64,000 nt of DNA from contig OZ024740.1 in the NCBI GenBank assembly GCA_964016885.1, positions 91,822,001 through 91,886,000 on the forward strand, in the 5' to 3' direction. The translations under genes and the position numbers were made by a program. The number at the start of each line of letters is the position of its first letter. Position 1 is the first letter of the stretch. This stretch comes from Eledone cirrhosa. Lineage: Eukaryota. This document shows positions 12,602 to 64,000 of the stretch, piece by piece. The notes beneath the pieces were generated by a model. It ran no database searches, had not been told where the DNA came from, and saw nothing but the letters and a program-made list of their open reading frames with translations.

Positions 12602-12673
<72 letters not shown>

Positions 12674-12813
12674 AGTGTAATTTACTACACAAAACGAAGG
12701 TTATAGAGAAAACTGAGGTTGGTAATGGCACATGGAATATATAAGAGACAGAATACTTTTTTGTGAAAAAACATATAATTTTATAAGGTAAGGAAATAAT
12801 AAAGGGCATAAAT

Positions 12814-12857
12814 AATGACCGGTTTCGATGGGTCTGCAAAAGCCATCTTTTCAAATG
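12814..12857 (-). ncRNA. Minimal hammerhead motif (U3-A8 variant) in the pLTR; mutated second copy at 16931-16974 (+)
   Basis: TTGAAAA-GATGG-(11 nt)-CCATC-GAAA-CCGG-TC-ATT; palindromic helix III ACCGGT; helix I is weak. Confidence 0.65.
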
Positions 12858-13311
12858 TTGATTAATATTAAGAGAAATTAATAATAAGAAGAGTTAAAAT
12901 TTGAGATTTGAAAATTCAAGTATAAAATTCATTGTGGGATTTCATAGTAGTTTTCATCTTGGTAGCAGCTCGTTGACTGCTTCTGGTAGTGAATGAGAAG
13001 TTATTTGGGGGGGGGGGGGGGGGGGGGGTTATTTTATAAAGGTCAAATTTAGCAATGGCCAGATGGCCAGCTGCTGGTCAATGAAGGGGTGGAAGCAATA
13101 TACATACATATATCTTCCTGTGCTCGGTAGGAGAGGGGAGATTGATAGAAAGGGATTTAGTGCACTTACACCTATATATACACACATACCTTCATCCACA
13201 CATACATACATATACATATACATATATATATATATATATACATATACACACATACATACACACACACATATACACATACATACACACATACACACACACA
13301 TATATGCACAT

Positions 13312-13369
<58 letters not shown>

Positions 13370-13555
13370 ACATACATATATATATACACACATATACATA
13401 CACATATATATACACACACCCACACATGCATACACACACACATATATATACATACACACATACAAACGCACACACATATATACACATACACACACATATA
13501 TATACACACACACACACACATATATATATACACATACGCATACATCCAGATACAC

Positions 13556-14044: not shown

Positions 14045-16324
14045 CTATTGGGGTGATAACCCGTTTAGTTTTGGTTTAAATTTGTTAAGGAATATATTTT
14101 CTTTGTTTATTCTTTGTTGCTGTGTGAACGAATCTGAGCACTTGTAGAAGGGGAAGATTTTAAAGTTGGGTAGTGTCATTCCTGCGCAGTTCGCAATATG
14201 GCTGCTCAAGGGGATTTTTCTTGTGCTAGCGTCACGGATTTGTTGGCGGTGGATGGTCATTCTTTTGCGTAATGAGGTGCCCGTCTGTCCTGTGTAGTTG
14301 TGTTTGCACCCACCGCAAGTTATTGCGTAAATCAAGTTCTCCGAGTTGCAGGTGAATTTGTTTTTTACTGTAAATGTTTGGCCATCTTTAAATGTAAATT
14401 GTTGTCCTTCAGTGAGGTAGAGGCACGTTCCACAGTTTGTTCTACCACATTTGGTAACTGTAGGGTTGAGGATTGGTTTGGTTATATTTGGTCCAGTGAG
14501 AATGCGTTTTAGTGATTTGGGTTGTCTTTTACTTTTAAGGATCTTGTGTGTTTCAAGAATAAACTTCATTTTTACATCTTTAAGTAGGATGGGGAGGTTT
14601 TTGTGTAGGTGATCAAACATTTCGGTATTTCTGGGGTTGAAAGTGGATACATATGGCAGGGTGTTGAGTGTGGTTTTCTGTTTTGGATTGTTAAGTTGAT
14701 GGGGATTTAGGTGTTTTGCCCTGTCTATTCCATTGTTGATTATTTCAAGTGGAAAGGCTTTTAAGATAAGGGTGTCTTTTAGTTCCTTTAGTCTTTGCTC
14801 CCGTTTAGGTGGATCTGATACTATGGTACATATACGTTTGGCCAAATTGTAAGGAGTGTTAAGTTTTGTATGTTTTGGGTGACTTGATGTGAAAAAGAGG
14901 TATTGCTTGGAATCTGTGGGTTTATAGAATATATCTGTATCTAATTTCCCGTCTATTACAGAGATGAGAATATCCAAGAAGGCTAATTCCTTGGGATTGG
15001 ATTCCATTGTGAATTGTATGTTATTATCTATGTTGTTTATCATGTTTTTAAACATAGTAAGTGAGTTCATGTCTTCTTGCCATAGGATAAAGCAGTCGTC
15101 TAGATATCTTTTCCAATTGGCTTTGAGGTGTGTGTGGAAAGAGTCTCCAAATAAGAGAAGGGACTGACTGTATATTTGTTGTTCATGGAATCCCATGACT
15201 AGGTTGGCATATGTGGGTGCTACTTTCGTGCCCATTGCCGTACCTGATACTTGTCTGTATGTAGAACCATTGAATGTGAAGTAGTTATTTTGTAGGATAA
15301 AGCGGAGTCCGTCAGTGATAAAATATTTGTTGATGCGTGTCGGTATTTCTGATGGGTGTGTGTTAAGCCAGTATTGGACTGCTGTTATTCCATAGTTGTG
15401 GGGTATGTTTGTGTAGAGGTTTATTACGTCAAAGGAGACAAGAATTGTATTTGCACTTACTGTTTTAGGGAGGTGTCTCAGCATGTCAATGTCATCTCGT
15501 ATGTAGCTCTGTATATGTTGTAGAAAGGGTTTCAGTAGGATGTCCAGAAAGTTGCTAAGTCTGTGGGTTTCACATGTAGGGCCTGCTATAATTGGCCTGA
15601 GTTTTAGGTCTTCTGGTGGTGTTAGTTCAATGTAATTGTTGGTTGAGGTGTCACATGCATCGTTTATGGGTTTACATTTGTGGAGTTTCGGTAAGCCGTA
15701 AAAAGAGCTTGTATTGCATTTGAAGTGGCTTATATAGTTAAACTCTTTTGTGGTTAAGCTGTTGCGGTATTTATTCAGTAAGGTCAAAAGGTGCCCCATT
15801 GTTTTGGTGTGTTTGTAGTGTTCTGTGTTTTCATAGTATGTGTTCTTTTCGAAAATGTTAAGTGCGAGGGTCCTATAGTAGTCCGTATTCATAATGACAA
15901 CAGTACTGCCTTTATCGGCTTCTTTGATAGTTATCTCAGGGTTGTTTCTAAGTGTGAATAATTCTTCCCATTCGTGTGTAGATAGGTTTGATTTCGTGTG
16001 TTTATTTGTAATTTTTTCATAGGGAAATTTGGTGATGTGTTCGCAGCACGTGTCCAGTGCTTTATTTCTTCCCTTTTGTGGACAGAAATTGCTTTTATTT
16101 CTAACCAGTGATTCGTCTTCAGTGTTGGTGGCGTTGTGGAAGAATTCCTTTAGTCGCAGCTTTCGGCAGTATTCCATGATGTCATCCTTCATTTCGGGGA
16201 AGTTTGGTTTACGTGGTGTAGGTGTAAATTTCAGGCCCTTACTTAAAATGTTGATTTGTGTGTTGGTTAGAGGTGTCTGTGAAAGGTTGATTATTTTTGG
16301 TTTCTCCTGAGGGGGGGGGGGCAT
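14045..16324 (-). CDS. PLE reverse transcriptase / GIY-YIG endonuclease (5'-truncated, uninterrupted)
   Basis: INLS..LSKGLKF, ADKG, FYGLPKLHK, RPII, SFDVINLYTNI, Q..GTAMGT, RYLDD, FLD, Cys-rich linker CGRTNCGTC, LIY..C..C..YTGQT..R..H. Confidence 0.92.
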   Translation of the reverse strand: MPPPPQEKPKIINLSQTPLTNTQINILSKGLKFTPTPRKPNFPEMKDDIMEYCRKLRLKEFFHNATNTEDESLVRNKSNFCPQKGRNKALDTCCEHITKFPYEKITNKHTKSNLSTHEWEELFTLRNNPEITIKEADKGSTVVIMNTDYYRTLALNIFEKNTYYENTEHYKHTKTMGHLLTLLNKYRNSLTTKEFNYISHFKCNTSSFYGLPKLHKCKPINDACDTSTNNYIELTPPEDLKLRPIIAGPTCETHRLSNFLDILLKPFLQHIQSYIRDDIDMLRHLPKTVSANTILVSFDVINLYTNIPHNYGITAVQYWLNTHPSEIPTRINKYFITDGLRFILQNNYFTFNGSTYRQVSGTAMGTKVAPTYANLVMGFHEQQIYSQSLLLFGDSFHTHLKANWKRYLDDCFILWQEDMNSLTMFKNMINNIDNNIQFTMESNPKELAFLDILISVIDGKLDTDIFYKPTDSKQYLFFTSSHPKHTKLNTPYNLAKRICTIVSDPPKREQRLKELKDTLILKAFPLEIINNGIDRAKHLNPHQLNNPKQKTTLNTLPYVSTFNPRNTEMFDHLHKNLPILLKDVKMKFILETHKILKSKRQPKSLKRILTGPNITKPILNPTVTKCGRTNCGTCLYLTEGQQFTFKDGQTFTVKNKFTCNSENLIYAITCGGCKHNYTGQTGTSLRKRMTIHRQQIRDASTRKIPLSSHIANCAGMTLPNFKIFPFYKCSDSFTQQQRINKENIFLNKFKPKLNGLSPQ

Positions 16325-16418
16325 TGTGTGTGTGTGTGTGTATATGTGTGTGTATGTGTATATATGTGTGTGTGTGTGTATGTATGTGTGTATCTGGATG
16401 TACGTGTATGCATACATA

Positions 16419-16449
<31 letters not shown>

Positions 16450-16522
16450 GTGTGTGTATGTGCATATACGTGTGTGTGTATGTGTGTATGTATGTGTATA
16501 TGTGTGTGTGTATGTATGTGTG

Positions 16523-16583
<61 letters not shown>

Positions 16584-17077
16584 GTATATGTATGTATGTG
16601 TGGATGAAGGTATGTGTGTATATATAGGTGTAAGTGCACTAAATCCCTTTCTATCAATCTCCCCTCTCCTACCGAGCACAGGAAGATATATGTATGTATA
16701 TTGCTTCCACACCTTCATTGACCAGCAGCTGGCCATCTGGCCATTGCTAAATTTGACCTTTATAAAATAACCCACACCCCCAAATAACTTGTCATTCACT
16801 ACCAGAAGCAGTCAACGAGCTGCTGCCAAGACGAAAACTACTATGAAATCCCACAATGAATTTTATACTTGAATTTTCAAATCTCAAATTTTAAATATTC
16901 TTATTATTAATTTCTCTTAATATTAATCAACATTTGAAAAGATGGCTTTTGCAGACCAATCGAATCCGGTCATTTTTTATACCCTTTATTATTTCCTTAC
17001 CTTATAAAATTATATGTTTTTTCACGAAAAAGTATTCTGTCTCTTATATATTCCATGTGCCATTACCAACCTCAATT

Positions 17078-17136
<59 letters not shown>

Positions 17137-17138
17137 TC

Positions 17139-17222
<84 letters not shown>

Positions 17223-19566: not shown

Positions 19567-19643
19567 GTAATAATAATAATAATAATAATGGTTTCTACTT
19601 TAGGCACAAGGCCACCAATTACCCAGTGCATTACTGGTACTTT
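19566..19643 (-). mobile_element. (AAT)n plus SINE 3' terminal ~52 bp
   Basis: Near-identical to 29954-30023; truncated exactly at the Tx1 3' end. Confidence 0.75.
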
Positions 19644-22600
19644 TTCATTTATTGGTCACAAGAGCCGACATATAGGGTACAATACAAAAGACTAGGACAG
19701 TCGGCTTTTACAGAAAAATCGAGTAAACAATATCAATAACAATAAAAAAGTAACAATAACATTACAACAAGAACATATTCCTCAATATGCTGACCACCCA
19801 GGGTTCGCTCAGCAATCCTGAACGATCCGACGCTTCGAGAGCAGCCTGGAAGAGCACCCTCTCCTCCACAAATTTACCTACACACAGCCACATGACCAGA
19901 ATAGGCCCACTCACACTGGCCATTCTCGCCACATTCACGCACCCTTCAGCAATGTACTGGGGGGAAGCACCTCTCTCGCCACCCTCACCTGCTTTTGCAA
20001 GTGAAACTTGAAAACGTCGATGAGGGATTGGCTTAAGAGAAAAGTGTCTGTTTCAGTCCTTTCAACCTCGTCGACCATACAACCGCTTACGCTACTGCCA
20101 CCAGACAGAATAAAATTGCCTGCCCTTCCTGGCCAAAAGAAGGCGGTGGGTCGATATTCACTATGGACTCGGCCGATAGCCGGATCCGTTCTACACGCGA
20201 CAACAGCTGTTCAACATAACTCCACAAGTCAGTAATGCACGGACACTGGACGAGTGCGTGCAGAACGGTTTCGTCGCTCTGCGCGCATCTCGGGCAAGTC
20301 CGTCTGACAGCTCTTCTGTGCCTGTAGAGTTTATCTCGAACCCGCAATGACCCCCGGTAGCACTGCCAAGCGAGGGATTTTTTGGAAATTGTCCATCGTC
20401 CTCGGCTCGAAAGTCTTCCAGTACAGACTGGTTAGTTCGACTGCGTTGACTCCCAGAGCCTCTCCGAGTGCATCGTCGCACCTCCCCACGACTAATCATC
20501 TATAGAACTCGAGAGTGGCAGTTCCACTGACCGCATTGCCAGCCTGGTAGAGGGTATTGAGTGCCTGGCAACATTCCAGATGCCAGTCATCCAGTCTCGG
20601 AGTCTTCTTGACCCAGGATTGCAGCACAGTCAAAGAAACGAGCTACGGAAAGGCCCGTCTGACAAACGGCGACCACACCTATTCACCGTTTAGGCAGAAT
20701 ATCTGGAGATGCCGCAGCCTCACCGCGTGCCTGCGCATCATTAGCCACGGCATGCCCAGCCCTCCACGTAGATGGTGCTGGCAGGAGATGGACCGCCTCA
20801 CCGGCGGAACTTGACGCCTCCAAAATAATTTGAAGAGGAGCCGCTACAAGATGCCGAGGCGCGAACGGAGGCAAGGGACAACGGTCAGACGGTAATAGAT
20901 GACGGATGCGAAGTACGCGTACGCCACCTCCGCCCGAGCTTTCTGTGATAGCTTCATTCCAGCCCATTTCTGGGTGAGATGGGCTACCCTGCCCGTCACC
21001 TCGTCCCAATTTGTATCCACCTGGAGGACCCGAACCAAACCCCGAGCAACTTTACCGGTCCGTCCGTCCAGCGCCTAACGACAGGGTTGGACGGCATGGC
21101 CTTGCCTCTCCAGCTGCCGACTTTTCTGGGTTAAGTTTTTCTCCCGTCAACCTTTCATATTCCTCCAATAAGTTGCCGACCACCTCGATTTCTGAGGTGT
21201 CCGACACCATCACGGTGATGTCGTCCGCATAAACCGACACAGCATTTCCGCGTCCCGGTTCGAGCGGGATGCCCTGCAACAGCTCAAGCTTCCGCAGTAA
21301 AGGCTCGAGAGTCAATACGTTCATAAGCGAGGAGAGAGGGCACCATTGACGGACCGATCGGGAGACGTGAAACGGTTCCGAGAAGGGGCCATTAATTATG
21401 ACCATCGAGCAGGTGCCGCTGTTCATTGCAGCGATCCAGCTTCTGAAGACGGGCCGAAGCCAGCTGCCTTGAGGATATCTTCCAAGTACCGATGGTCGAC
21501 CCTATCGAATGTTTTCGATTGATCTCAATTGATCAGAGCCCCACCGTAGCGTGGTTTAAACCCTACCCTCTCTATGATGTATCGCATTAGGTGGAGGTTG
21601 TCGTGTATGGACCTGGTTGGGATTGCGCAAGCTTGCGCCTCCCCACCCAAATTCCCGACGATAAGCACCAACCTCTTCGCTAACACCCTGGCCAAAATCT
21701 TAAACACTGTGTTGGGCAGAGTTATGGGCCTGGAATTGTCTAATGTGTCCCTCTTGTTATCGTCTTTCCTTATCAGCTTCAATATTCCCGTTTTGCTGCC
21801 AGTTGCAGTAGAGGGTTTCGAGTTGATTGGAGAACAAGTCTGGCATATTTACGTAAAGCTCGTAGGGCAGACCATCCAAACCGGGTGACTTGCACCTCAT
21901 GCAGCCGACAAGGGCATCCTGAATCTCGGCTGAAGTAATTGGTTTTTCGCATCGCCCAGCGTCAGCCGTCGAGAGTTTCGGCAAGCCATCGAGGTAGGTA
22001 CTGAAGTCTGCCACCATCTCTGACCTGCAACTTCCCCCGAAAAACCGAGCAACATGTTGGCGAAAGGCCTCACACATCCGCTTGGAATTGCTCAGCTCGT
22101 GTCCGTCTCGGTCCGCCAAAGACCGAATCGTGGTTTTATTACCATGCTGCGCCTCTGCCATGCGGGCCCATCGAGCGGCTTTGGTTCCCTCGTTTCTCAG
22201 AGCACGGACCTTAGCTCTGACAATGCAACCTTCGTGTTTCGCATTGAAGAAATGGTCTAATGCCATTCTCGCTGCTAGCACGTCAGTCACAATGCCACTA
22301 CCAATAGCCTCGTCTAACTGATCTACCAACTCTCCCTCCTTTCTATATTTCTCTAACGCTACTTCTTTGCTAAGCTCTATCGACATTACTCTAATCTCCC
22401 TTTTGAGAGCCCCCTGCCATCTTTTGTTGACGTCTCCCCCTGTCAACTTTTCTTAACTAAATTGTTGACCTGGACCCTGTAAGCCTTACGTTCTGGAAAT
22501 GACATGTTTAGCTTCCAGTAACCAGGTCCTAATCTACGTGTCTTATCTAGGTCGACCATACAGATCACAAACTTGTTTTCTGAATATGCGACCGTTTCAA

Positions 22601-25463
22601 AACGTGGACAGCTTACACTATTTCTGTCTATTTTCCTAATGAATATCCTGTCTATATACGATCTAGATGACCCTATGCGGTTAGTCTACGTCCACACTGG
22701 CGCATTAGGGAAATCTAGTCGGTACCTGTCAGACAGTTGGAACTGGCTGATCAGGTTCTTGAGGCTTTTGTAACTCCCCGCTTCTATCGGATACTCCCAC
22801 ACAGACCCAGCGTGCGTCTAAGATACCGTTCCAGTCCCCCGCTAACAGTAAAGGGTGAGACGTACCCAAAAAGGCTTCCAGGCGTCTAAAGAAGTCATGC
22901 CATCCTGCCCCAGTAGGAGCATAGACGGCCACTAGTCTAAACGCAACATCTTCGTTATTGCTCACGTCCAGGACCACCAAATTCCCGTCCGGGTCACGGA
23001 GGATCGACCTTACCTCGAGATCCAGGTCTTTCCTAAACATCACTGCCACCGCTCCTCCCATTCCCAGCCGGCTAACAGATGCAAAGATCTGATAGTCGAC
23101 GAACATGGGGGCTAGTGCGTGCGTGACGGAAATCCTGGTCTCGCTGACAGATTACATCCATTTCTATAGACCCGAGGTGGTTGAGCAGGTGACCCTTCTT
23201 TCAAGACGATCCCAGGCCTCGAACATATAAACATCCTACTCTTAATGCGGCCATGTTGGCAGGTTAAAAAGATAGAGAGGAAGGGTCTATTACCCTCAGG
23301 TCTCTTGTGAAGGTCGGGTCGTACAACCTGCATAGTCGGTGGAGTTTCTTTTGGGAACCCCTTTAAAAGTCTTGAAGTTGGCTTTACGTTAGGGGTTCCC
23401 ACGCCCCGAAGAAAGCTGTTTCGTATTTCTTTGTGTAAATCGAGCGACATTCGCACCAGAACCTAATCTTTCGGCACGCGAAATGTACTCGATTTAAAAA
23501 TGTCCCCCTCTTTTTGTATATTTTCACTTCGTGCTACGAGGGCCATCAGTTCCTTGTTAGCCCTCCTGACGAGCACAAAGTTTTGTATGTTTTGTTGGTG
23601 TGATTTTATTTGTTTGCGTGGCTGTGGTGGTGATGGTTTTGGTGGTGTTGTTTCGGTTGTGTCTGTGTTTGTTGTGAGTGCGGTGTCTGTGGTTTCAGAT
23701 GTTTGTGTGCATAATTGTTCTTGCGTCTGTTTAGGTTGTTTGCGTTTGAGGGATTCTGGTGATGGTGATGGTGGTGTTGATGTTGGTGTTTACGGAGAGA
23801 TATTTGGGTGGGGGGTGTCTGCGTTTTTTATTGTGCGTGATTTTGTGCTTTGATGATTTTTTTTTTTTTTGTGTTTCCTTTTTTTTTATTTTGGCGGATT
23901 TTGGATTTCCCTCATCTTCACTACTGGTAGATGAGCGGTCTGTGTCTGTAAGTGTGTCTGTATGTATGGTTATGGTTTTATTGGTATGTGTATTTGTTTG
24001 GGGGGGGGGGGGGGAATTTGACAGCTTTCCTCGTTTATCCCCTGGGTGGTCAATGTTGGTGGTGGTCTTTCTATTGGTGTTGTTGTTGGTGGTTTTGCAG
24101 GTGCTGGTGTTGGTTGTGGTCCTCGCCCCGGCGTCGGCCGCAGTGAAGCCTTTCGACCCCTTGCCTCTTTCAGCAGCTGAGTGCAGAAGGCTCGCAAATG
24201 GGTTTTTTCCCCACAAACAAAACAATGTGGCCCTTTTACCTTCGGTCATAATGTGAATGACCGTCCCATTCTGAGGGCGGATGTGGTCCGGGATTGTCTT
24301 CCCATTCTCGGGCCTGATCTGGAGAAGGATCTCCAGGTCAACACCGGACGAGTCCTCTCTGGCCATTCTGGTCACTTCTATAGGGACTGTATCCGTCACC
24401 TCCACAATCACACATCCCAGAAGCCACCACATGTCAAGTCCTGTTGGTATTCTGGGAATGCGGGGATGGGCCGTTCTTTTTCCCATGTGGGAGGGGTACA
24501 TTATGAAATTGCTGGTTTTGCAAGGAGTCATAGCGTGTTACATAGCGAGGGCTTCTGACTTAAACAACACCGAAATGGTGCCGTACTGTCTGCCCCTCTC
24601 TGTGTATTGGGTATCTTCTTTGATGCACCTCAACGCGACTTCGACATCTGCTTGTGTGATTAAAGCTGCCCTTTCGGTTTGTGCTGAGATGCATATATAA
24701 TGCACCGTTCTGCGCTCCACTGCCTCAATAGCTTCTACCGGGACAGTTAAGTTGGCCGAGATTTGCACGTGCTTGATGAGCTTCCATGCATGGGCCAACT
24801 TTTCATCTTTGTTTGATAGGTCCATGTTGAAGCATGCCCTCTTTTTTGCTGCTGCCGCAGCGAAAGTGTTCTTCTTGTTTTCGTTGGGGGTGTTGTTGTC
24901 GTTGTCGTTGTTCTTGTTGTTGTTCTTGCTATCACTGGCGCTGTTATCATTGTTGTCTTTGTCGTCACCGTTGTTCTCGGTGCAGTTGGTATTGTTGCTG
25001 TTGGTGTTGTCGCTACTTGTTTTCATGTTAGTGGTGTTGATATTGTTGTTGCATTTGTCATTTTTTTGTTATCTGTATTTTCGTTGTCGCTGTTACTGTC
25101 ATTCTTTTTTCAAAATTAGAGTTCTCATTGGTATCATTGGTGTTTTTGTTTACATTAGTGGTGGTGGTGTTTGTGTAATCCATTTTTGTTAATTTCGCTG
25201 TCGCGCTCTTCTCATCTTCTACGTCGTTGTCGCACGACAGCAGACATATCGCAGTGGGGTGTGACTCAGCCATGTTTTTTTTCCGTATATTTTTTTTTAA
25301 ATGTAAAAAAAGTTCAAATATTTGGGCCTAAAGACCCAAACATTATATTTTCCCCTTCACAGGGCAAAGTCTAAGGGCTTATATCCCTTACACAACAAAT
25401 CATTTTACCAGGCAAATAAGGCGACTTACTGGGAGCGAGAAAAATACGTCCGATTAGACACAC
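19641..25463 (-). mobile_element. Near full-length, decayed Tx1-clade LINE (Tx1-1)
   Basis: ORF1 remnants from 25273; ORF2 from 23254 with APE motifs (VYAP, GDWNG), KSPGLDG, RPITL, VYADD and CPRC..ETVLH..C zinc knuckle; many frameshifts. Confidence 0.92.
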
Positions 25464-25480
25464 AATAATAATAATAAATA

Positions 25481-28400
25481 TACGCACATGGGAAGATACG
25501 CACATGGTGGATAGGGTATTATGGAATCGCTCCCGTAAGTGCTTGACTTTTTACATATTTAAAACAATTGTGTTAGAATAATTCTTATTACAAATGAAAC
25601 GTAAGATATCAGTCTTCACTCCAGGAAGTGGCAACGCATCGCATTACGGCATAGGGCTCCAATATTTAATATTTAATTTAATATTTAATTTTGTACCAGA
25701 AATGTGATAGTCCGAAAAGGAAATGGCTAGAAAACATCAGCCAAATACAAACCAGCACCATCCCTATAGTACTGCTGTCCCATCACCACCGTCACCACTG
25801 CATCATCGCTACCGCCACTATTAAGAGAGGGGTGGTGGTGCCGCTACACATGAATAGAAGCGAGGAAGGTATCAAAAGATATAAATAGACTGGGTTAGTG
25901 ACTCGGTCAAACAGCTAACAACAACAATAACAACACCAAAATAATGATGTTTTTGTATCTCTAACTCTCTCAAAATGTTTAGTTTAAACGATGACAAATC
26001 TAAACTATAATATAATAATAATAATTGCGTCTGCTTTTGGCACGGGACCAGCAATTGGCCCGGTGTGTTGCAGGTGCTTTGCAGTGTCGACCCCGTAAGG
26101 ATGAAAGGAAAACAAAAATTATAAAAAAAATTATAGTCGAAAAATGATAGAACAGAACAGACAGAAGCAAATTTCAAAAGTTTTGAACACATTTCCCTAC
26201 TTCCCTTAGCAGCATCAGCATCAACAAAAATAGTAACCGATGTTACTGGCCTTGTAAAACGAAAACCGCAAAGGAGAAAACAAACAAAAAAAAAGTAGTC
26301 AGGCACTCAAACATTAATATGAAACTTATGTTTATTTTCGTTTTTTTAGGTTTTTATCTATTTGTTTGTTTGTTTATTTATGTTCGTCTACAGCGTGATG
26401 GTGCCACGCTAAAATCACCGGGGGTGATGAAATCACTGGGAGTGATGAAATCACCAGTAGTTATGTAACCAAACATTCACCAATCCTCGATATGAGTGCT
26501 TAAATATCGAACCTAAATAGTTCGAATAACGGTGAAGTGGAGACTGGAATGTGAGGTGACAGACTCTCACGAAGCAGGTGCTCCCTGGACCATCAGCAGG
26601 GACTTGGCTGTTATCCAGATACTGCTGGTGTTGGAGGAAGAGGGAGAAGCAAAGGGACCAGAACCAACTGGACGAAAGAATTGAATAGAAATGTTATGCA
26701 ATGTTACCTGAAGAGTAACCCCAAGGAAAGAGGCGAAAGGACACGGATGCATAACATCTGGAACGAGATTGGTCTATTAAATTAGATGAACAAAAATTGG
26801 CAGGGCAGGCTCGGGTAATAAGAACTAATGGGTGGATAAGCGAGCTGGAACTGGAGGAGCTGAGCAGAGAGATTAGGTTGGAAATGGAGAGTGGAGTATG
26901 CCAGGCAAACGAGCCAGTGGGAAATGAAGGTGAGAGATTGATAGAACGGAGGAACAATGAGAAACAGACAATGATCTGCATGCTGAAATAAATAATACCT
27001 GGTACAAAGATACGTCCATTGAGGAAATGAATGCTGACGAGCTAGGCCAAGATATGGTTGATAACATAAACTTAGTGGTAGATGAAATGAACAATGATAT
27101 CGGGAAATCTATGTACCAAAGATTTGTAGACAGGAAACAAGTTAAAATAAACAAGTTAAGGTAAATAAAGTCATCCCATACCTTGAGGCGAGGAGTATTC
27201 ACCAGTGCAACAATATCCTCAAAGCAGCTCCAAATGCGGTGAGGAAATTACTTGGCATAAAAGCGAGAGGAAATAACAAACAAGAAAGATCAGAACCTTG
27301 GTGGAAGAAACGACTGAATGGTCAAATCAGGGAAATGAGAAATGAGATTGGAAAGCTTGAGTCCCTACTGAATGGGACATTAAAAATCATAGATGCTAAA
27401 AATAGACTGAAAATAAAGTACAAAACTAGGATGAAAAAGCTAAATATTATCATAGAGGAACTGAAGCAACGCAAAGAGTGAAAAAATTGGGCGATACGAG
27501 AGCGGACTCAGTCAGTATAGACAGAACCGCATGTTTGACAACAACCAGAAGATGTTGTTTGGACAGCTTGAAGGGAAAGAAAGAGGCAACGACTTGATCC
27601 CTGAGTCGGATCAAACTAATACATTCTGGAGAGGAATATGGGAGCAGGATTTTAATCATAATGATCACTCAGTGTGAATTGAGACAGTACAAAATGAGAT
27701 TAGTGAACAGGTACACTAACAAACTGATTTGAGTATCACAGTTGAAACTCTTAAGGGGCAGGCCAAAAAGCTAGCCAACTGGAACTCACCAGGCCCAGAT
27801 GCTGTGCAGGGGTATAGGATTAAAAATATAACATCCCTCCACCCGAAACTGACAACCATGTTCAATGACTGCTTGATGTCAGGTGAGGTACCAGAGTTGT
27901 GGACAAAAGGTACCACAGTTCTAATAATGAAACACCGAATCAAGGGTAATGATGTTACCAACTATAGACCTATCACATGTTTGTCCTTAATGTGGAAACT
28001 GTTAACACACATTGTTTCTGAGTTAATCTACCATCATCTGCACACAAACAACCTGTTACCGGACGAACAGAAAGGATGCCGAAAGATGTCCCGTGGTACA
28101 AAGGACCAGTTACTTATTGATAAGATGGTAATGAGGAATTGCAAGATGGTAATGGTCTTGTCATGGGTTGGATAGACTACAAAAAGGCATATGACATGGT
28201 GCCTCATTCTTGGTTCACCAAAAGCCTAGAGATGTTCAAGGTGGCAAATAACATCAGACAGTTGTTGAGCAAAAGTATGAAATCCTGGAAAACAGAGTTA
28301 ACATCGGCTGGAGAATCCTTGGGAGGCGTGAAGATCAAGAGAGATATCTTCCAGGGAGATAGTCTGTCCCCTATGTTGTTTCACCTTGCCCTGGTGCCCC

Positions 28401-29952
28401 TGACCATTATACTGCGAAAAGTGAGAGCAGGATACAAGTTGGGAAAGGGAGAGCTTACCATCAATCACCTCCTCGTCATGGACGATCTTAAGCTCTTCGG
28501 GAAGAGTGAGAAGGAGTTGGATGTGCTTGTTGACACTGTCCGTATTTTCAGCAATGATATATGTATGCAATTCTGTATTGGTATGTGTGGAGTCCTTGTG
28601 ATGAAGTGGGTAAATTGAGCAGACACAACGGAATCCAGGTACCAACAGGTGAGATGATAAAGGAAATTGACACCGGAGAAGGATATAAATATTTAGATTT
28701 TCTGGAGGCTGATGACATCAAGAACAAACAAAATGAAGGAATTGTTAAGATCTGAATACATTCGGAGAGTAAGGAGCGTATTAAAATCACATTTGAACTG
28801 TAGGAATGCCATAAGTGCAGTAAATTCCCGAGCTGTGTCTATTATTAGGTACAGTGCGGGAATTCTGAGATGGAATTTTGCTGAACAAAAATAAATGGAT
28901 AGGAATACTAGGAAGCTATTGACTATCTACAACATGTTCCACTAAAGGGGTGATGTCGATAGACTCTACTTAAGGTGATCTGAATGTGGAAGATGTCTTA
29001 TCAGCATAGAGGACTGTGTTCAGATGGAGAAAAAGAACCTACACAAATACGTGACCGATAGTAGGAAGCCAATGCTCATAATTGTACTGAAGGAGAGGAC
29101 AATAGACCAGGGGATGTCCAAGGAGGAAATAACAAGGAGAAAGTGAAACCTTCATGAACAATCCTTTCATATTACCTTCTGTGAGAAAACTGAATTCAGA
29201 GATCCACAGACATGGAACTGGTTGAAAAGAGGACACTTTACAAAGGCCACAGAAGGAATGCTAATAGCTGCGCAAGAGCAGGCCCTCAAAACGAAGTGGC
29301 TGAAAGGCCACATTTACAAGGAGGAGGCTAGCCCACTGTTTAAACATTGTATCCGAGTGTAAACACCTAGCCCAGACTCACTATAAGGGCTGCAGATATG
29401 ATGTGATGGGCAGCGTGATCCACTGGCACCTATGCAAAGTAAACAATTTACCACATTCTGATAAGTGGTATGAGCATAAGCCAGAGTCGGTGATAGAAAA
29501 CGATCAGGTGAAGGTGCTGTGGGATTTTAGGATACAGACGGACAAGAAACTGGAACACAATAGACATGACCTAGTGGTTTTGGACAAGGAAAAAAGATTG
29601 TGCCTGATTGTGGATGTAGCCTGCCCATTCGACATAAGTGCAAGAGAAGGAGAGGGAAAAAATTAACCGATACCAGGACTTAAAGTGGGAGGTAAAAAGG
29701 ATTTTGAACTGCCATGAAATGAAAGTGGTCCCGATTGCCATAGGCGCACTAGGTACTATCTCAAAGAGTTTCCAAGGATGGTTAAAGAAAATTGGTGCCG
29801 CCCCGCTTTTTGGAACACTTCAAAAGGCATGCTTGCTGGGAACAGCAAGAACCTCCGATACGTCCTGAATATCTGAGGCTGCAGGTAATGGTTTGATTTT
29901 CATTTCAACAAACTTTTCAGTTAAATAACATCAATGACTGAAACTCAAAGAA
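25481..29952 (+). mobile_element. Near full-length, decayed R4/Dong-clade RLE non-LTR retrotransposon (Dong-1)
   Basis: PWWKKRL, NWNSPGPD, YRPITCL, EQKGC, WIDYKKAYD, FQGDSLSP, VMDDLK; C-terminal restriction-like endonuclease LWDFRIQTD..HNRHDLV..IVDVACP..EK..RY; (AAT)n at both ends. Confidence 0.9.
26011..26108 (-). mobile_element. SINE 3' fragment inside the Dong-1 5' region
   Basis: TCTGCTTTTGGCAC..CCAGCAATT..GTCGACCCCGTAAGGATGAAAGG with an (AAT)n tail. Confidence 0.7.
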
Positions 29953-29967
29953 CAATAATAATAATAA

Positions 29968-30155
29968 TTGGTTCTACTTTTTGGCATAAGGCCAGCAATT
30001 ACCCAGTGCATTACTGGTACTTTATTTTATCGACCCCTTAAGGATGAAAGGCAAAGTCAAACACAGTGGGATTTGAAGTCAGATCGTTAAGGGACGTAAC
30101 TATTCTGGAAAGCATGGCATCCGACCTTCTACAGATACTGCCAATCTACCGACTC
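29968..30155 (-). mobile_element. SINE, near full length
   Basis: Reverse complement of the 49821-50004 copy, including the A- and B-box regions. Confidence 0.85.
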
Positions 30156-30189
30156 AAATAAAAATAATAATAATAATAATATTAATAAT

Positions 30190-40524: not shown

Positions 40525-40925
40525 CAAAATTTAAATTAAATTAAGGGTGTCATGTCAGATAGGCATGCGCCATATCCACTGTAATATATGCTCCAAAATT
40601 CCAATGAATATATCCGAGCATTTTATATCAACTAGAAATTGATTGACATATATATACCTAAAATAAACATATGAAACAATCACAGGGGACAATCTTTAAA
40701 ATGTGTAAGCACACACAGCTATGTGGGTAACTAATTAATGTGTAACAGCACTTCAAAAATAGATACCTTATAAATTGATTAATATATGTATAAGTTATTT
40801 ATTTTTGAAGTTCTAGTTAAACATTAATTAGATACCCACATATGTGTGTGTGCTTACACATTTTACAGATTATGCCCCTGTGGTTGTTTCATATGTTTAT
40901 TTTATACATATATATGTCAATCAAT
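40523..40925. mobile_element. Repeat family C, fold-back form
   Basis: ~40637-40762 is inverted relative to ~40799-40926; (TA)n flanks. Confidence 0.8.
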
Positions 40926-40929
40926 TAGT

Positions 40930-40992
<63 letters not shown>

Positions 40993-41042
40993 ATTCAGTG
41001 AGTGAGTGAGTCATTGCTGGAGATCGCTTAATAAACATCAGT

Positions 41043-41108
<66 letters not shown>

Positions 41109-41109
41109 G

Positions 41110-41865
41110 TTGGAAAAAAAGATGCCCTGAAACTACCATACTCTCGTCCTTCGGGTGAATATCTAGTGGTATCGAACAACATCAGAGACCTGGGAGTAAT
41201 TTCGGACAACAACATAAGCGGGTACACTCATATAAACACCAAAGTTCACATGGCCCGCATAATGTATTTTTGGATTCTCAGAACCTTCCAGTCGAGATAT
41301 ATCCACATTGTTATCCTTCTCTTCTCCACATTTGCCCGGCGCCACCTTGAATGTTGTTGTCCACTGCGGTCTCCCCACACGAAACAAAGTATCAAGAAAG
41401 TTGCAGCACCCCAAATGACAGGCCTTCACTATTGGAGTCTATTAGAAAAGTTCAACCATTATTCTCACTAACGTCGCAGTGAACGCTATATTATCTGCAT
41501 GATGTGGAAAATATTCCATCAGCTTTGCCCAAATGATGGTGGTAACACCTTTACTGTACATCCAAGGCTTGGGCCCCGTGCTATCCGCCCCTTGCATCTC
41601 ATAACAACAATACGGCACAATTATTTCACCCAAATTGACCCTGCTCTCTTTAACATTACCCCAAAGCACCTCAAAAATGGGAAGAGATACCATCAAGTTC
41701 AAGAAAACTTTGGACAAATTCCTTCAAGAAATCCAGGATAAGCCTCCTACACACGGATATCCCTGCTCGAGTGGACCATGGCGCCGAAACCGTGATTGTA
41801 AGTCTTCGCCAGCTGGTGCTATTAAGTTAGACATGGCCTGGGCAAAAATACGGCCAAACCTAACG
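41110..41865 (+). mobile_element. CR1-clade LINE 3' fragment
   Basis: [40 protein letters not shown]. Confidence 0.8.
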
Positions 41866-42460
41866 AAGTTATCAAAGTAGAATGTGTTTGCTGCAGCAGC
41901 AGATGTTCAAATAATACAATAAATCGAGATGGACTTGATAATTTCATTGCATTTGCATTCCGACAATGGGATTGATGAGTTAATATATGTATACAATAAC
42001 TACAACGGTACGTGATGAGGCCTACCCACAGACTCAGCCGATTGTGGTGAGTAAGGAGATAGCCCTGAGCCGAGAACACCAGAAGTCTGCACTGCAAGGG
42101 GTACGACCGCAAACCTGTCAGTGAGCGACCAGTGTTTGAAGAGTTTGACCCCCTCAGCCCGAAGCGCAGCAGAACCTGGGTCAGTTGCAGACTGCACCAG
42201 TTTGCGGCTGAAGAATGTGGCGGTGCAAGTGGCATCCCAGACGAGGGGTTTGCCTCGTGGAACGGGAAGATGGTCATGCCATCTGACCTTTTGCCGTCCC
42301 CTCGATCCAACCCCACGGGCTCGAGCTGGTAGGGAAGCCTGCAGCGTCTAAGCCATGCTTAAAGACATCATTGAGGGCAACATGATGTGGGATGCAGCGG
42401 GCACCGTGGCGACAGAAAAGTGGATGGAGGCCGAAATTGTCGACAGTGGAACCGCAGAGA
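41866..42460 (-). mobile_element. CRE-like RLE retrotransposon 3' fragment
   Basis: CLCG..GLHPLFC..HVALND zinc knuckle, [15 protein letters not shown] endonuclease motif, PLAVQTSG; abuts (TA)n. Confidence 0.7.
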
Positions 42461-42478
42461 CATATATATATATAGACA

Positions 42479-44815
<2,337 letters not shown>

Positions 44816-44821
44816 TAACTA

Positions 44822-46280: not shown

Positions 46281-46292
46281 AAATATATATAC

Positions 46293-46340
<48 letters not shown>

Positions 46341-46346
<6 letters not shown>

Positions 46347-46696
46347 AAAAAGAGATGAAATCGAAAATGCAACTGAAGTCTTATTTTTTTTTTAAATATA
46401 TATATTTATTTGGTTTCTTTACCCGTTTAGCAGTTCTTCTGCTTTTCAAAAGGTGAGTTGAGATGGAGGGTCTGTTGTTTTTCTCACAGATGTGAGAAAA
46501 ACCACAGACCATCTCAACTCACCTTTTGAAAAGCAGAAGAACTGCTAAACCGGTAAAGGAACCAAATAAATATATATATTTAAAAAAAAAATAAGACTTC
46601 ATTTGCATTTTCGATTTCATCTCTTTTTCTTTATACTTTCACTCGTGTAGGACACCTCGGTTATTTTTCATTTTGTAAAAAAAACCTCACTTTCTA
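46341..46696 (+). mobile_element. Fold-back element, ~145-bp arms plus tail
   Basis: Arms 46341-46488 / 46491-46634, tail to 46696, (TA)n flanks. Confidence 0.85.
46522..46559 (+). ncRNA. Minimal hammerhead motif (U3-A8 variant, G12 replaced by T)
   Basis: CCTT-TTGAAAA-GCAG-AAGAA-CTGC-TAAA-CCGG-TA-AAGG: 4-bp helix I, 4-bp helix II, palindromic helix III. Confidence 0.65.
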
Positions 46697-46710
46697 ATAT
46701 ATATATATAT

Positions 46711-47413: not shown

Positions 47414-48476
<1,063 letters not shown>

Positions 48477-58500: not shown

Positions 58501-61456
58501 GCCGGAAATGATATGTTCAGCTTCCAGTAATCCGGTCCCAACCTACGCGTTTTATCTAGGTCGACCATACAGATCACAAATTTGTGATCTGAATAGGCGA
58601 CCGTTTTAAAGTGTGGGTAGCCTACACTATTTCTATCTATTTCTATCTATTTTCCTAATGAAGATCATGTCTATATACGATCTAAATGAGCCCATTCGGC
58701 TGGTCCATGTCCATACTGGCACATTGGGGAAATCTAGTCGATACATGTGAGACAGTTGGACCTGGCTGAGTAGGTGCTTGAGGCTTTTGCGCCGCCCACT
58801 CCTACCAGCTACACCCACACAATCCCAGCGTGCATCTAAGATGCCTTTCCAGTCCTCCGCTAACAGTAAAAGGCGAGACGTACCCAGAAAGGTTTCCAGG
58901 TGCCTAAAGAAGTCCGATCGTCTGGCCCCTGTAGGGGCGTAGACGGGCAGCAGTCTAAAGACACCACCTTCGCTACTGCTCACATCCAAGACCACCAACT
59001 TACCGTCCGGGTCCCGGAAGATCCACCTTACCTCGAGTTCCAGTGCTTTCCTAAACAGCACTGACACTCCGCGTCCCATTCCCGGCCTGCTAACAGATGC
59101 GAAGATCTGATAATCCGCAAAAATTGGGGCTAGTGCGCGCGTGTCGGAAATGTTAGTCTCGCTGACGGTAATCACATATATTTCCAGCGACCTGATGTCG
59201 TTCAGCAGGTTACCCTGCTTCCAGGGTAACCCCAATTCGCGAACAATTAAACTTCTTACTGGTAATATGGCCATGTTGGCGAGCTAAAAGAGAGAGGGAA
59301 GGTTTAGTTACCCCCCGGGGTCTTGTAAAGGTCGGGTGTTTCGACCTCCATGGTAGGTGGGGTTTCTTTTGGGAACCCCTTTAAAAGTCTCGATATGGGT
59401 TTCACATTCGCGTTCCCACGTCTTGAGGAAAGCTCTCCCGAATTTATTTGAAGGAATCGAGTGAGATTCGAACCAAAAGCAAATCTTCAGGCACGCAAAA
59501 TGTGCTCATTTCAAAAATCTCCCCCCCTGTGTCTGAATGTCCTCGCTTCGTGCTAAGAGGTCCATCATTTTATCGTTGGCCCCTGTGCCAAGCACGAAGA
59601 TTTTAACATTTTGTTGGTGTGGTTAAATTTCTTTTCGTTTTGGTGACTGTGGTGGTGATGGTTTTGGTGGTGTTGTTTCGGGTATGTCTGTGTCTGAGGT
59701 CGGTGTGGTGTTTGCAATTTCAGGTATGTGTTTGTTTATTTGTACTCGTGTTTGTTTAGGTTGTTTGCGTTTAAGTGGATTGTGGGGGTGGTGTCGATGT
59801 TGCTGTTGGTGCTGATTTTATTGGGGAGGTGTTTGCGTTAGTGGTGTCTGTATTATTTGTTGTGTATGTTTTTTTATTTTGCTGTGGCTTTTTTTGGTGA
59901 GTTTTCTCTGTTTTTTGGCACTTTTGGGTTTTCCATCATCTGCGCTGCTGGAAGACAAATGGTATGTGGCTTTGGGTGTCTCTCTATCTGTGTGTGCGTT
60001 TATTGTTTTGTCTATGTTTATAATTGCGGGGGGGGGGGGGGTGCTTTCCTCGTTTACCCCTTGTATTGGTTTCGGTGTTGGTGGTAGTCCGTCTGTTTTT
60101 GATGTTGGTATCCGTGTCTTTGTTGGTGTTGTATTTGGTGGTGGTGGTGCAGCTTTCGGTGCTGACACTGGCGTGGGCGACAAAGGGGGTTTCCGACACC
60201 TTAATTTTTGCGCTGAGGGCAGACGGCTGGCAGATGCATTGCTTCCCCGCAGATGAAGCAGTGGGCCCTTCTTTCCTCAGTGATTAGTTGGATTGTTGTC
60301 CCGTCCTGCAGGCGGGCAAAATCCGGGATTTTGTTCATGTCCTCCGGTTTCATTTAGGAAAGAATCTCCAAATCCATTCCTGACCAGTCTTTTCTCTCTG
60401 TCATTTTATTATCCAGGAGCATCCCAGCAGCCACCATATGTTCATTCCTGCTGGGATGCTGGGAATGCGGACATTTACTGTCCTTTTACCCATGTACGAC
60501 GGGTGCATGATAATGCGTTCCGTTCTGCAGTTGGTCACGGAGTGTTTAATAGCAAGGGCCTCGGTTTTGAACAGTCGCGAGATGGTACCTTACTGTTTGG
60601 CTATTTCTTTATACTCTATGTTACTTCCGATGTACTCCAAAGTAGCCTCGACCTGTGGTTGGCTGGAAAGTTCCACTTTTCGTGTCTGCACCGAAATGCA
60701 TCGAAAAAACACCGTCCTCCTTTGCATGGCCGCTATTGCCCCCTCCTGGATGGTCAGGTTTGCCCAGGACTTCTCCCGTTTAATTAGCATCCACGCCTGG
60801 GCCAACTATTCGTCATTATCGCTTATATCAATATCAATAAGCGCTTTGTTTTTTTGCTGCTGCTGCAGCAAATGTGGTGCCTCTATTGCTCTTGCTGTTG
60901 GTGTTGTCGTGCTTGCTGTTGTTATCGGTGTTGTTGTTGTTGTTTTGTTTATTGTTGCTGTTGCCACCGCCATCTGTGTTTACACAGAAGCTGTCGGTAT
61001 TATTGTCGTTGTTGCTCTGAGTTGTTGTTATTGAGGTGGTGGTGGTGATGTCGTTTTCAGATGATACTGCTGCTGGCACAGAAAGGAGCGGTTTTGATCG
61101 TAGCTTTTGTGTTTTGCCTTCACATCCAGTGGAATGGAAGACAGGCATGTCTGTAGCTGTCGTAGTCGCGGTGAAATCTACTGTGGTTGCTTTTGAACTT
61201 TTGACCTGAATGTTGTTTACCGTTTCAAGGTCGAACATTTCCATACTTTTTCTTTTTTCGTGGGAAGTGATTTTTTTTTGAAGTTTTTAAAATAAATCTG
61301 AATATTCGGGCTTAAAGTCAAAATATTGAGGGGTATCCCTACCTTCAAATTAAGGTGGTTACCATATGTCTCGTTAACGACAAACAAATACAACAAATGA
61401 TACATTAAAACAGCTTAAAGTTACGAACCTTTTCCTTCGCAGACTTGTGCGTCTTC
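55503..61456 (-). mobile_element. Near full-length, decayed Tx1-clade LINE (Tx1-2, sister subfamily of Tx1-1)
   Basis: ORF1 remnants from 61244; ORF2 from 59274 with APE, NFRPITLLN, AYADD and CPRC zinc knuckle. Confidence 0.92.
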
Positions 61457-61469
61457 AAACATGTGCGTA

Positions 61470-61474
61470 ACAAC

Positions 61475-61529
<55 letters not shown>
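61470..61529. repeat. (AAT)n microsatellite between the Tx1-2 and Dong-2 5' ends
   Basis: Directly visible. Confidence 0.95.
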
Positions 61530-61694
61530 GGGAAGAAGACGCACGAGGTGACGGAGGTCATGAAATCGCTCCCGTAAGTTTTGAATTTTTAACATATTTA
61601 AATCATTTGTGAAATAACAACTCTTAGTACAAATGCTACGTAAAGCACCCGGCTTGAGCCCCAAAAAATTCGGACCCAAAATATATTGTTATAA

Positions 61695-62352
61695 GGCTCA
61701 AATATTCAAATATTCAACTTTGTATTGTACACTGTATATCCCAAAAAAAATGGCTATAAATGGAAGAAGAAGAACCCCCCCCCCCTCCTCTCCTCTGGCT
61801 ACACTATATAGGACAGCTAAACTCACCAACACCAGAAACTAGATACACCGCCCACCCCATCATCTGTGTACACTAAACACAACAGCATTTTCACCTTCAC
61901 CGCCACCGCTCACTACGGCCATCATTACCACCACTATCCCATCACCGCCGCCACCACCCCTTGACTCCTTCACTGCTGCTGCCACCGCTACAGCACCATC
62001 ACTACAGTAATACGGCTCAAATATTCAAATATTCAACTCAACTTTGTATTGTACACTGTATATCCAAAAAAAAAATAAATAAATAAATAAAATGGCTATA
62101 AATGGAAGAAGAAGAACCCCCCTCCTCTCCTCTGGCTACACTATATAGGACAGCGAAACTCACCAACACCAGAAACTAGATACACCACCCACCCCATCAT
62201 CTGTGTACACTAAACACAACAGCATTTTCACCTTCACCGCCACCGCTCACTACGGCCATCATTACCACCACTATCCCATCACCGCCGCCACCACCCCCTG
62301 ACTCCTTCACTGCTGCTGCCACCGCTACAGCACCATCACTACAGTAATACGG
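61695..62352 (+). repeat. Tandem duplication of a ~320-340 bp unit in the Dong-2 leader
   Basis: 61695-62013 is near-identical to 62014-62352. Confidence 0.9.
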
Positions 62353-62921
62353 TCGCATCACCGCCACCACTGCCTCGGTATCGACATCACCGCCACCACT
62401 GTCTCAGTATCGCCAACGCCGCTAGTCTCTGCTGGCTACCACTTCCACATTATAGAATTCCTACTACTAACAAAGAGGAAGGCATCAAAATATATAGATA
62501 GATTCAAAAGAAAAAAGAAAAAACAAACAGCAAAAGCAGCACAGCAACAACAGTAAAAAACGAGAAAAACAGAGAAAAACAAAAACAAAAAAAGAAACCC
62601 CAAAAACGTAAAGAAAATAAGAATGAAGAGAGAAGCAGGCGGACGGACAGAGAAGAGGGGGGAAAAAGTAAAACTTAAAAAACAAAAACTAAGTCAGACA
62701 TTCGAATACTACATTACAATGAAACTTATGCTTATTCATTTTTGGGGCCCTTTCTGCCCGTGTGTTTGTTTGTTTATGTGTGTCCGTATACAGCGTGGTG
62801 ATAATGCCACACAAGGGCCAAGTGGGATGGCGGATCCACAGATGGCTATGTAAACATACATTCGCCAATCCTCGATAAGAGTGTTTAAATATCGAACATA
62901 AACAGTTCGAATAACGGTGAA

Positions 62922-64000
62922 ATGGAGACTAGAACGTCATGTGACAGACTCTCACCCAACAGGTGCCCCCTGGCTCAGCAGCAGGAACCTGACTGTCAAC
63001 GAAATACTGCTGATGTTGGAGGAAGAAGAAGAAGGAAAGGGGCCAGAACCAACTGGACGAAAGAATTGAATAGAACTGTTATGCAATGCTACCTGAAAAG
63101 TAACCCCAAGGAGAGGGGCTACAGGAGACGGATGCATAACATCTGGAACGAGATTGGTTTATTTAAATTAGATGAACAAAAATTGGCCGGGCAGGCTCGG
63201 GTAATAAGAACTAATGGGTGGATAAGCGAGCTGGAACTGGAGGAACTGAGCAGAGAGAATGGCTTGGAGATGGCGGGTGTAGTATGCCAGACAAGCGAGC
63301 CGGCGGGAAATGAAGGTGAGGAGGTCCTGAGAGCGGAGGAACCACCCGAAGCAGACAATGATCTGAATACTGAGATAAATAATACCTGGAACAGAGATAC
63401 GGCCACTGAGGAGATGAATGCTGACGGGCTAGGACAAGATTCGGTTGACATCCTAAATTTAGTGGTAGATGAGTTGAACAATGATAGTGGGAGACCTATG
63501 AACCTAAGATTTGTAGACAGGAAAAAGTTAAAAGAAACAACAGCTAAGGTAAACAAAGTCATCCCATACCTTGAGGCGAGGAGTCTTCACCAGTGCAACA
63601 ATATCCTCAAAGCAACAGCAAATACGGTGAGGAAACTACTTGGTATAAAAGCGAGAGGAAACAACAGACAAGAAAGAGCAGAGCCGTGGTGGAAGAAGCG
63701 ACTGAGTGGGCAAATCGGGGAAATGAGAAATGACATAGGAAAGCTTGAGTCACTACTGAATGGGACACTAAAAAACATAGGCACTAAAAATAGACTGGAA
63801 ATAAAATACAAAACTAGGAGTAAAAAGCTAAACATTATCATAGAGGAATTGAAGCAACGCATTGTAGCAAAGAGTGCCAAAATCAGGCGATACGAGAACA
63901 GAGTCAGTCAGTATAAACAGAACCGCATGTTCGACAACAACCAGAAGATGCTGTTTGGACAGCTTGAGGGGAAAGAAAGAGGCACCGACTTGATCCCTGG
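62922..64000 (+). CDS. Dong-2 ORF N-terminal part, apparently open to the window end
   Basis: Manual translation METRTSCD..WTKELNRTVMQCY..GYRRRMHNIW..EQKLAGQARVIR..PWWKKRL..KIRRYE..QNRMF; absent from the ORF track, probably because no stop is reached. Confidence 0.7.
   Translation, partial: METRTSCDRLSPNRCPLAQQQEPDCQRNTADVGGRRRRKGARTNWTKELNRTVMQCYLKSNPKERGYRRRMHNIWNEIGLFKLDEQKLAGQARVIRTNGWISELELEELSRENGLEMAGVVCQTSEPAGNEGEEVLRAEEPPEADNDLNTEINNTWNRDTATEEMNADGLGQDSVDILNLVVDELNNDSGRPMNLRFVDRKKLKETTAKVNKVIPYLEARSLHQCNNILKATANTVRKLLGIKARGNNRQERAEPWWKKRLSGQIGEMRNDIGKLESLLNGTLKNIGTKNRLEIKYKTRSKKLNIIIEELKQRIVAKSAKIRRYENRVSQYKQNRMFDNNQKMLFGQLEGKERGTDLIP

Follow-up and report, generated by a model that had tools for sequence, protein, structure and literature searches.

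How do two groups of retrotransposons that carry different endonucleases come to begin with the same 5' leader? The question is raised by a 64,000-nucleotide (nt) stretch of the Eledone cirrhosa genome (contig OZ024740.1; G000:C1:91822001-91886000, genome 3.0 Gb), referred to here as the window. It holds two head-to-head pairs, each consisting of an element with apurinic/apyrimidinic endonuclease (APE) and reverse transcriptase (RT) on the minus strand and an element with RT and restriction-like endonuclease (RLE) on the plus strand, with (AAT)n between them. The names of the two, Tx1 and Dong, are carried over from a first-pass annotation of the window. A collinear leader is present in both groups, it has moved repeatedly between two Dong bodies, and a 167-nt intron within it has on rare occasions been removed exactly in Dong copies. 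The best explanation, which we consider fairly probable, is that Dong carries a leader captured from Tx1, swapped among Dong bodies and serving as a putative on-switch.

A common leader in Tx1 and Dong

The leaders and targets of the two pairs are as follows.

25274..25463, minus strand: Tx1-1 (family Tx1-A) 5' leader; its 5' end after (ATT)n is common to 30 genomic relatives
25424..25438, minus strand: Tx1-1 motif A by motif match, including a 5' splice-site-like GTAAGT at 25429-25424
25317..25344, minus strand: Tx1-1 leader hairpin with motif C as its right arm; perfect 12-base-pair (bp) stem in the family consensus, with covariation
25464..25479, plus strand: (AAT)n target common to the first head-to-head pair
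25480..25489, plus strand: Dong-1 tip (ATACGCACAT) duplicated locally at the junction, peculiar to the window copy
25490..25722, plus strand: Dong-1 5' leader, with a first exon of 45 nt, donor at 25535 and motif C at 25654-25666
25718-25719, plus strand: AG in the Dong-1 leader, the counterpart of the acceptor used in Dong-B copies
61245..61470, minus strand: Tx1-2 (family Tx1-B) leader, with donor-like GTTCGT at 61428-61423, hairpin at 61301-61327 and open reading frame 1 (ORF1) ATG at 61244
61475..61529, plus strand: (AAT)18, target of the second head-to-head pair
61530..61749, plus strand: Dong-2 5' leader (young family), with donor at 61574 and motif C at 61694-61706

All nine motif strings on which the first-pass annotation had based a common leader, together with both ATGGCT sites (25273 and 61750), proved exact in sequence and position, and Dong-1 likewise carries ATGGCT, at 25723. 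A first look with the four window leaders gave 1,444, 503, 1,598 and 1,134 candidates, of which 40 were scored and 30 fetched for each. Among the relatives, TCGCTCCCGTAAGT was found in 30/30 for Dong-2 and TCGCTCCCGTAAG in 20/30 for Dong-1, TCGCTC[CA]CAGTAAGT in 22 of the 30 for Tx1-1, and, for Tx1-1 and Tx1-2 alike, motif C in 26/30. The exact Dong 14-mer is also present in a sister subfamily of Tx1-1; motif A as written is not found in Tx1-2, where the aligned position reads AAG/GTTCGT. The 5' tip thought to be common to Tx1-2 and Dong-2 is mostly specific to single copies: GAAGACGCAC is exact in the window, but just 2/30 Tx1-2 relatives have it, one of these being the window copy itself; at the family level, the resemblance comes down to CGCACAT (28/30 Tx1-2), with CGCACATG in 17/30 Dong-1.

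It could be argued that the likeness arose by chance or by local inverted duplication at the two window junctions, and the 10-mer tip match is indeed nearly copy-specific. Yet, when solo copies were checked, the motifs proved to be family traits, most copies being solo, and a composite pattern of donor, 100-118 nt and motif C had 3,082 matches against 11 for its reversed control. Thousands of copies begin with a related front end of ~220 nt. Head-to-head copies are rare (3/14 Dong and 0/8 Tx1-A in a position-ordered sample with 22/30 loci parsed; 5/53 Dong, 0/43 Tx1-A and 3/25 Tx1-B in family searches), and since most copies are not head-to-head, local inverted duplication is refuted. A composite element is likewise ruled out, and this explanation as a whole has next to no probability.

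Homology was assessed on nine consensus leaders, each built from 2 to 25 copies matching strict start patterns. The Tx1-A and Dong-1 consensus sequences are identical at 135/218 positions over ~200 collinear nt, scoring 69 against 22.8 +/- 3.7 for shuffles (z=12.5), a score reached by 0/500 shuffles and 0/1,500 real AT-matched windows (their maximum 44-47) and about as strong as that of Tx1-A with Tx1-C (z=13.3). The interior of this pair, once stripped of motif A, motif C and the ATG, still aligns at 65/113 identical positions with 5 gaps (z=6.9), on par with one Tx1 family against another; masked interiors gave z=4.7 for Tx1-B/Dong-1 and z=4.1 for Tx1-C/Dong-4, and reversed and reverse-complement controls stayed at z<=0.8 in the cross pairs. 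Donor and motif C are 110-114 nt apart in 8/9 consensus leaders, while Tx1-D, the ninth, carries a pair of hairpins of which the first lies near that distance. When hidden Markov models (HMMs) were cross-scored, the Tx1-only model gave Dong-1 17.9 bits and the Dong-only model gave Tx1-A 18.2 bits (shuffled maxima 5.4 and 6.2). The proposed common module is thus borne out by Tx1-A/Dong-1, also with the motifs masked, while comparison with shuffled controls gave weak or null results for several other cross pairs.

Convergence would mean that Tx1 and Dong each arrived separately at the same core-promoter and first-intron signals of the host, equally spaced, with no transfer. It would fit the observation that the best-kept words are functional ones, namely the 5' splice site and the A-run before the ATG, the variation of the donor words among Tx1 families (GTAAGT, GTGAGT, GTTTGT and GTTCGT, all starting with GT), and the weakness of several cross pairs. 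However, the motif-free interior aligns nearly gapless, and a useless ATG and half a hairpin stand at matching places in Dong. Moreover, the 100 listed of the 3,082 composite matches are by eye all Dong-like or Tx1-A-like, and an all-family leader HMM run over 1.03 Mb placed 455/460 matches in known families, the best two others being Tx1-type. The Tx1 and Dong leaders look homologous, with old common descent and uneven decay, and convergence is unlikely, though it keeps some weight.

Identity and targeting of the two elements

Behind the leaders, the window holds the following bodies and extensions.

19643..25273, minus strand: Tx1-1 body, with decayed ORF1 from ATG 25273 and APE-RT ORF2
25723..26393, plus strand: Dong-1 5' extension, with vestigial ATG, A/C-rich sequence, the end of a short interspersed nuclear element (SINE), pyrimidine tract and TACAG (26389-26393)
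26394..29968, plus strand: Dong-1 body (RT, RLE-type), decayed
61750..62793, plus strand: Dong-2 5' extension, with tandem duplication (61688-62015/62007-62352) and TACAG at 62789-62793
62889..63998, plus strand: Dong-2 ORF, continuing past the window end; a full copy has a frame of 1141 amino acids (aa)

An intact Tx1 relative (locus L268) has ORF1 and ORF2 with APE, RT and zf-RVT by Pfam, which also finds the APE domain in both window Tx1 copies, and the best match of Tx1 ORF2 in the PDB is L1 ORF2p (E 2e-52). Dong has the single 1141-aa frame, in which RT is followed by CCHC, RH[DN] and PD..D nuclease motifs, patterns that mark the RLE type, and no APE domain is found. For the N-terminal 761 aa of Dong-B, Pfam gives RVT_1 only. 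The best PDB matches of Dong are R2 proteins, and the RTs of Tx1 and Dong are just 24-26% identical. The name Tx1 appears to be backed by domain layout and targeting, and Dong is putatively of R4/Dong type by its single-ORF RT-RLE layout and (TAA)n insertion.

An AAT run precedes Dong in 13/14 copies of the position-ordered sample and in 44/53 of the family search, and an ATT run precedes Tx1 in 41/43 Tx1-A and 25/25 Tx1-B copies of the family searches. The head-to-head pairs arise because Tx1 and Dong use one target in opposite polarity. At seven loci (L164, L166, L167, L170, L176, L182 and L200), (AAG)n separates the Dong 5' end from its (AAT)n target, probably by slippage on the GAAGAAG tip.

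Movement of the leader among bodies

The Dong leader is found on two bodies, A (the window type) and B, whose proteins are 34% identical. On a tree of Dong leaders, comprising 58 of the 83 leaders with a body call after near-identical Dong-2 copies had been reduced to 4, the body label has to change 6 times, and starred branches force at least 4 of these changes. The leader has thus been swapped repeatedly between Dong bodies A and B, and leader alignments, leader tree and RT comparison together reveal a leader history discordant with that of the ORFs.

Modules are shuffled in Tx1 as well. Tx1-C and Tx1-D have a common ORF2 with different leader and ORF1 (L268, in which both frames are intact, L269 and L271 are among the module-shuffled loci), and in L307 a different leader front, with the donor GTGAGT, precedes the Tx1-A hairpin and ORF1.

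Splicing of the Dong leader

The GTAAGT described by the first-pass annotation as splice-donor-like is used, if rarely, in Dong. The exon-donor junction is intact in 1,841 Dong leaders, and all 55 sites with a different base after the exon were inspected; 8 were unrelated and 42 had point changes or small indels. In L168 and L176, both Dong-B, exactly GTAAG...AG has been removed, corresponding to a 167-nt GT-AG intron. The deletion in L166 and L167, which belong to one tandem region, reaches into the A-run but not as far as the AG, and in L200 the exon is joined ~10 nt past a second AG before the Dong-B ORF, a case not counted as exact. Loss of a long intron reaching to the TACAG before the Dong-A ORF was seen at none of the 55 donor-changed sites. 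As the exon-side search fixes the donor side by design, a reciprocal search was run from the acceptor side, giving 24 matches with 2 internal deletions, both of which begin at GT.

The two exactly spliced copies are independent, since spliced copies do not form a clade in a tree of 11 Dong-B copies, and exact GT-AG removal in inserted copies means that RNA of the Dong leader is made and can be spliced. The same 167-nt joint was the deepest among 15 joints shown for run X1, of unrecorded type (106.9 versus <=18 for the others), while runs X5 and X6, from other organisms, had almost no coverage of the leader. Well over 99% of inserted Dong copies keep the intron. In a search for spliced Tx1-A copies with 950 matches, of which 12/30 loci were read, most matches were to an unrelated abundant repeat with TTTTCTCGCTCACAT (L210-L239).

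Probable direction of the transfer

As the leader tree is unrooted, the direction rests on ATG use, hairpin and diversity. The ATG after the A-run opens the long ORF1 in Tx1, while in 75 Dong copies it opens <=72 codons (4-72 in relatives of Dong-1) and sits 0.9-1.2 kb upstream of the real ORF. In Tx1, motif C forms the right arm of a 12-bp hairpin; Dong retains only that arm, and no hairpin was predicted in its leaders. In 11 hand-picked Tx1 copies, 93.6% of cells are paired and 4/10 pairs changed on both sides, although the shuffle test of the hairpin is inflated by kinship among the sequences; the G-U pairs and C(UUCG)G loop of the Tx1-D hairpin point to RNA structure. Finally, Tx1 families A to D (5 Tx1 consensus leaders) and two more Tx1-type carriers have the module, and diversity is far greater among Tx1 leaders than among Dong leaders, which form one closer group. 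These features suggest that the leader probably went from Tx1 to Dong, and the simplest history would be a single capture from a Tx1. The exchange between clades proposed by the first-pass annotation is therefore kept as far as the common leader goes, while one old one-way capture, followed by swaps among Dong bodies, is favoured over ongoing two-way exchange.

An opposite or outside route, in which Tx1 took the leader from Dong or a third source, for example a host gene, supplied both, would be compatible with an unrooted tree and with a carrier that has neither body (L124/L272: a single leader-like module of 21 HMM bits that has motif A exactly and is followed by neither a Tx1 nor a Dong body). 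The greater diversity of Tx1 leaders, and an ATG in use and an intact hairpin in Tx1 only, speak against this route, which we find quite unlikely.

Several observations weigh against capture from Tx1 as a whole. Just 7/20 Tx1/Dong cross pairs had <=2/500 shuffles scoring as high, Tx1-B/Dong-2 reached z=0.2 at full length, every Tx1-D/Dong pair had z<=2.4, and the Tx1-only HMM scores for Dong-2 and Dong-3 fell below the shuffled maximum. Leaders are 61-70% A+T with common T and A tracts, which may inflate identity. The leader tree has no outgroup. No present-day same-strand chimera was found among the leaders examined, with 0/123 Tx1 leaders followed within 1.6 kb by a same-strand Dong body and 0/103 Dong leaders by a Tx1 body, where one same-strand match was an embedded SINE piece. 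A decayed Tx1 ORF1 in the Dong extension was sought and rejected, as only low-complexity matches and a similar A/C-rich composition were found. With respect to splicing, the youngest Dong family has lost the AG in front of the ATG, GT-AG joints for the window leaders were absent from the 15 of 31 joints shown, and 0/14 donor-changed Tx1-A copies were spliced (overlapping searches, confined to Tx1-A among the Tx1 families, with 3 and then 14 matches).

Hairpin-like sequences also occur outside the leaders. The Tx1 3' end (CCCTTGTGG before AATAAA; L268:6090-6190 and L275) resembles the Tx1-C leader hairpin, as does the end of a common short element (GGCCTTGTGCC; window 29955-30187). This short element is possibly a SINE mobilised by Tx1, and the 3' recognition signal may be imitated by the leader hairpin.

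A putative promoter and its probable capture

Fixed 5' ends, splicing and no detectable ribozyme are compatible with the Dong leader as a putative internal promoter for RNA polymerase II. Alternatively, it may have been captured yet be inert, a 5'-transduced passenger of elements still made by read-through from their flanks, in keeping with silkworm Dong, described as self-cleaving from a co-transcript (PMC3774820). However, Dong subfamilies whose interiors have diverged still have motifs A and C at the same spacing, and Dong copies begin at one fixed 5' position. For a hepatitis delta virus (HDV)-like ribozyme at the Dong 5' end, there was no Rfam ribozyme match at gathering level and none with our own descriptor, used without a positive control. 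An inert passenger is quite improbable. For small nuclear RNA and spliced-leader identities of the leader, there was likewise nothing above Rfam gathering scores.

Capture of the Tx1 leader could have followed either of two routes. Tx1 ORF1 starts are rich in Asn/Thr codons, whose runs form AAT-like tracts, so Dong could insert there on the sense strand, under the Tx1 promoter. Alternatively, the Dong RT could switch template, a route just as plausible given 0/123 present-day chimeras. The Tx1-initiated transcript would then be copied to its 5' end, and the ORF1 stub would decay afterwards. Transcription would start at the first G of the leader, supported by the early 5' splice site, and as most packaged RNA would retain the intron, the leader would be passed on, with spliced copies as dead ends; the hairpin would matter for Tx1 RNA only.

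The donor itself may be kept for U1 binding, or else a factor site may coincide with it, as in human L1, where the donor is reported to be retained because it lies within a RUNX3 site needed for promoter activity (PMC5860796). As the Tx1 donor words differ yet all begin with GT, the U1 reading is favoured. In mammalian cells, 5' splice sites are described as blocking the Restrictor termination pathway (PMC12211998). It could be speculated, as a tentative and rather doubtful extension, that an RLE element gave up ribozyme release from host transcripts for a portable promoter-plus-intron cassette captured from Tx1, in which the donor would recruit U1 and license long AT-rich RNA, splicing would be held down so that the cassette is inherited, and the switch would have driven the expansion of both Dong lineages.

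Other features of the window

The Dong-2 tandem duplication (61688-62352) begins at motif C, takes in the vestigial ATG and is found in most young Dong-2 copies, with L018 and L020 lacking it. At 14045-16714 (minus strand), a Penelope-like 888-aa frame has RT by Pfam and, by eye, a GIY-YIG-like C-terminus; it is flanked by inverted repeats (12602-13442 and 16331-17211) and has no leader-HMM match. A big inverted repeat spans 40891-48385, with arms of ~3 kb each, 87-91% identical.

Relation to known systems and meaning

In mammalian L1, bodies of long interspersed nuclear elements (LINEs) have been described as acquiring new 5' untranslated regions (UTRs), and leader history likewise departs from ORF history; there, leaders pass between L1 families or come from unknown sources, while the leader here has apparently come from an APE LINE and been taken up by an RLE LINE (PMC3600994). 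Spliced integrated retrotransposed elements (SpIREs) of human L1 similarly combine a conserved early 5' UTR donor with rare precisely spliced genomic copies, yet are reported for ~2% of full-length L1, compared with 2-4 in ~1,890 leaders of Dong, an RLE element (PMC5860796). Bombyx mori Dong and Ascaris R4 are single-ORF RLE elements at TAA repeats too, but are described with an HDV-like ribozyme at their 5' end (PMC3774820), where Dong here has a Tx1-like leader and a 0.7-1.0 kb extension with no ribozyme detected. The reported ORF1 transfer among CR1, L2 and Jockey also moves 5' modules between LINE lineages with a tree-like ORF2, although these are coding modules within APE LINEs only (PMC4120745). 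An octopus repeat paper lists both groups, its main text being silent on UTR, promoter and intron (PMC13282606). While 5' UTR recruitment within L1 and ORF1 transfer among APE lineages are known, no report of leader sharing between Tx1 and Dong, and thus of a crossing of the APE/RLE divide, was found in full-text searches of the literature; supplements, Repbase entries and subscription journals lay outside this scope and may bear on novelty.

If the capture from Tx1 is true, regulatory modules can cross the deepest LINE split when two groups share a target, and an RLE element would here be seen gaining its own promoter. It would also provide a natural test of what makes a LINE hold on to a 5' splice site that has to stay largely unused, and a short cassette that works in this host could perhaps be put to use as a promoter.

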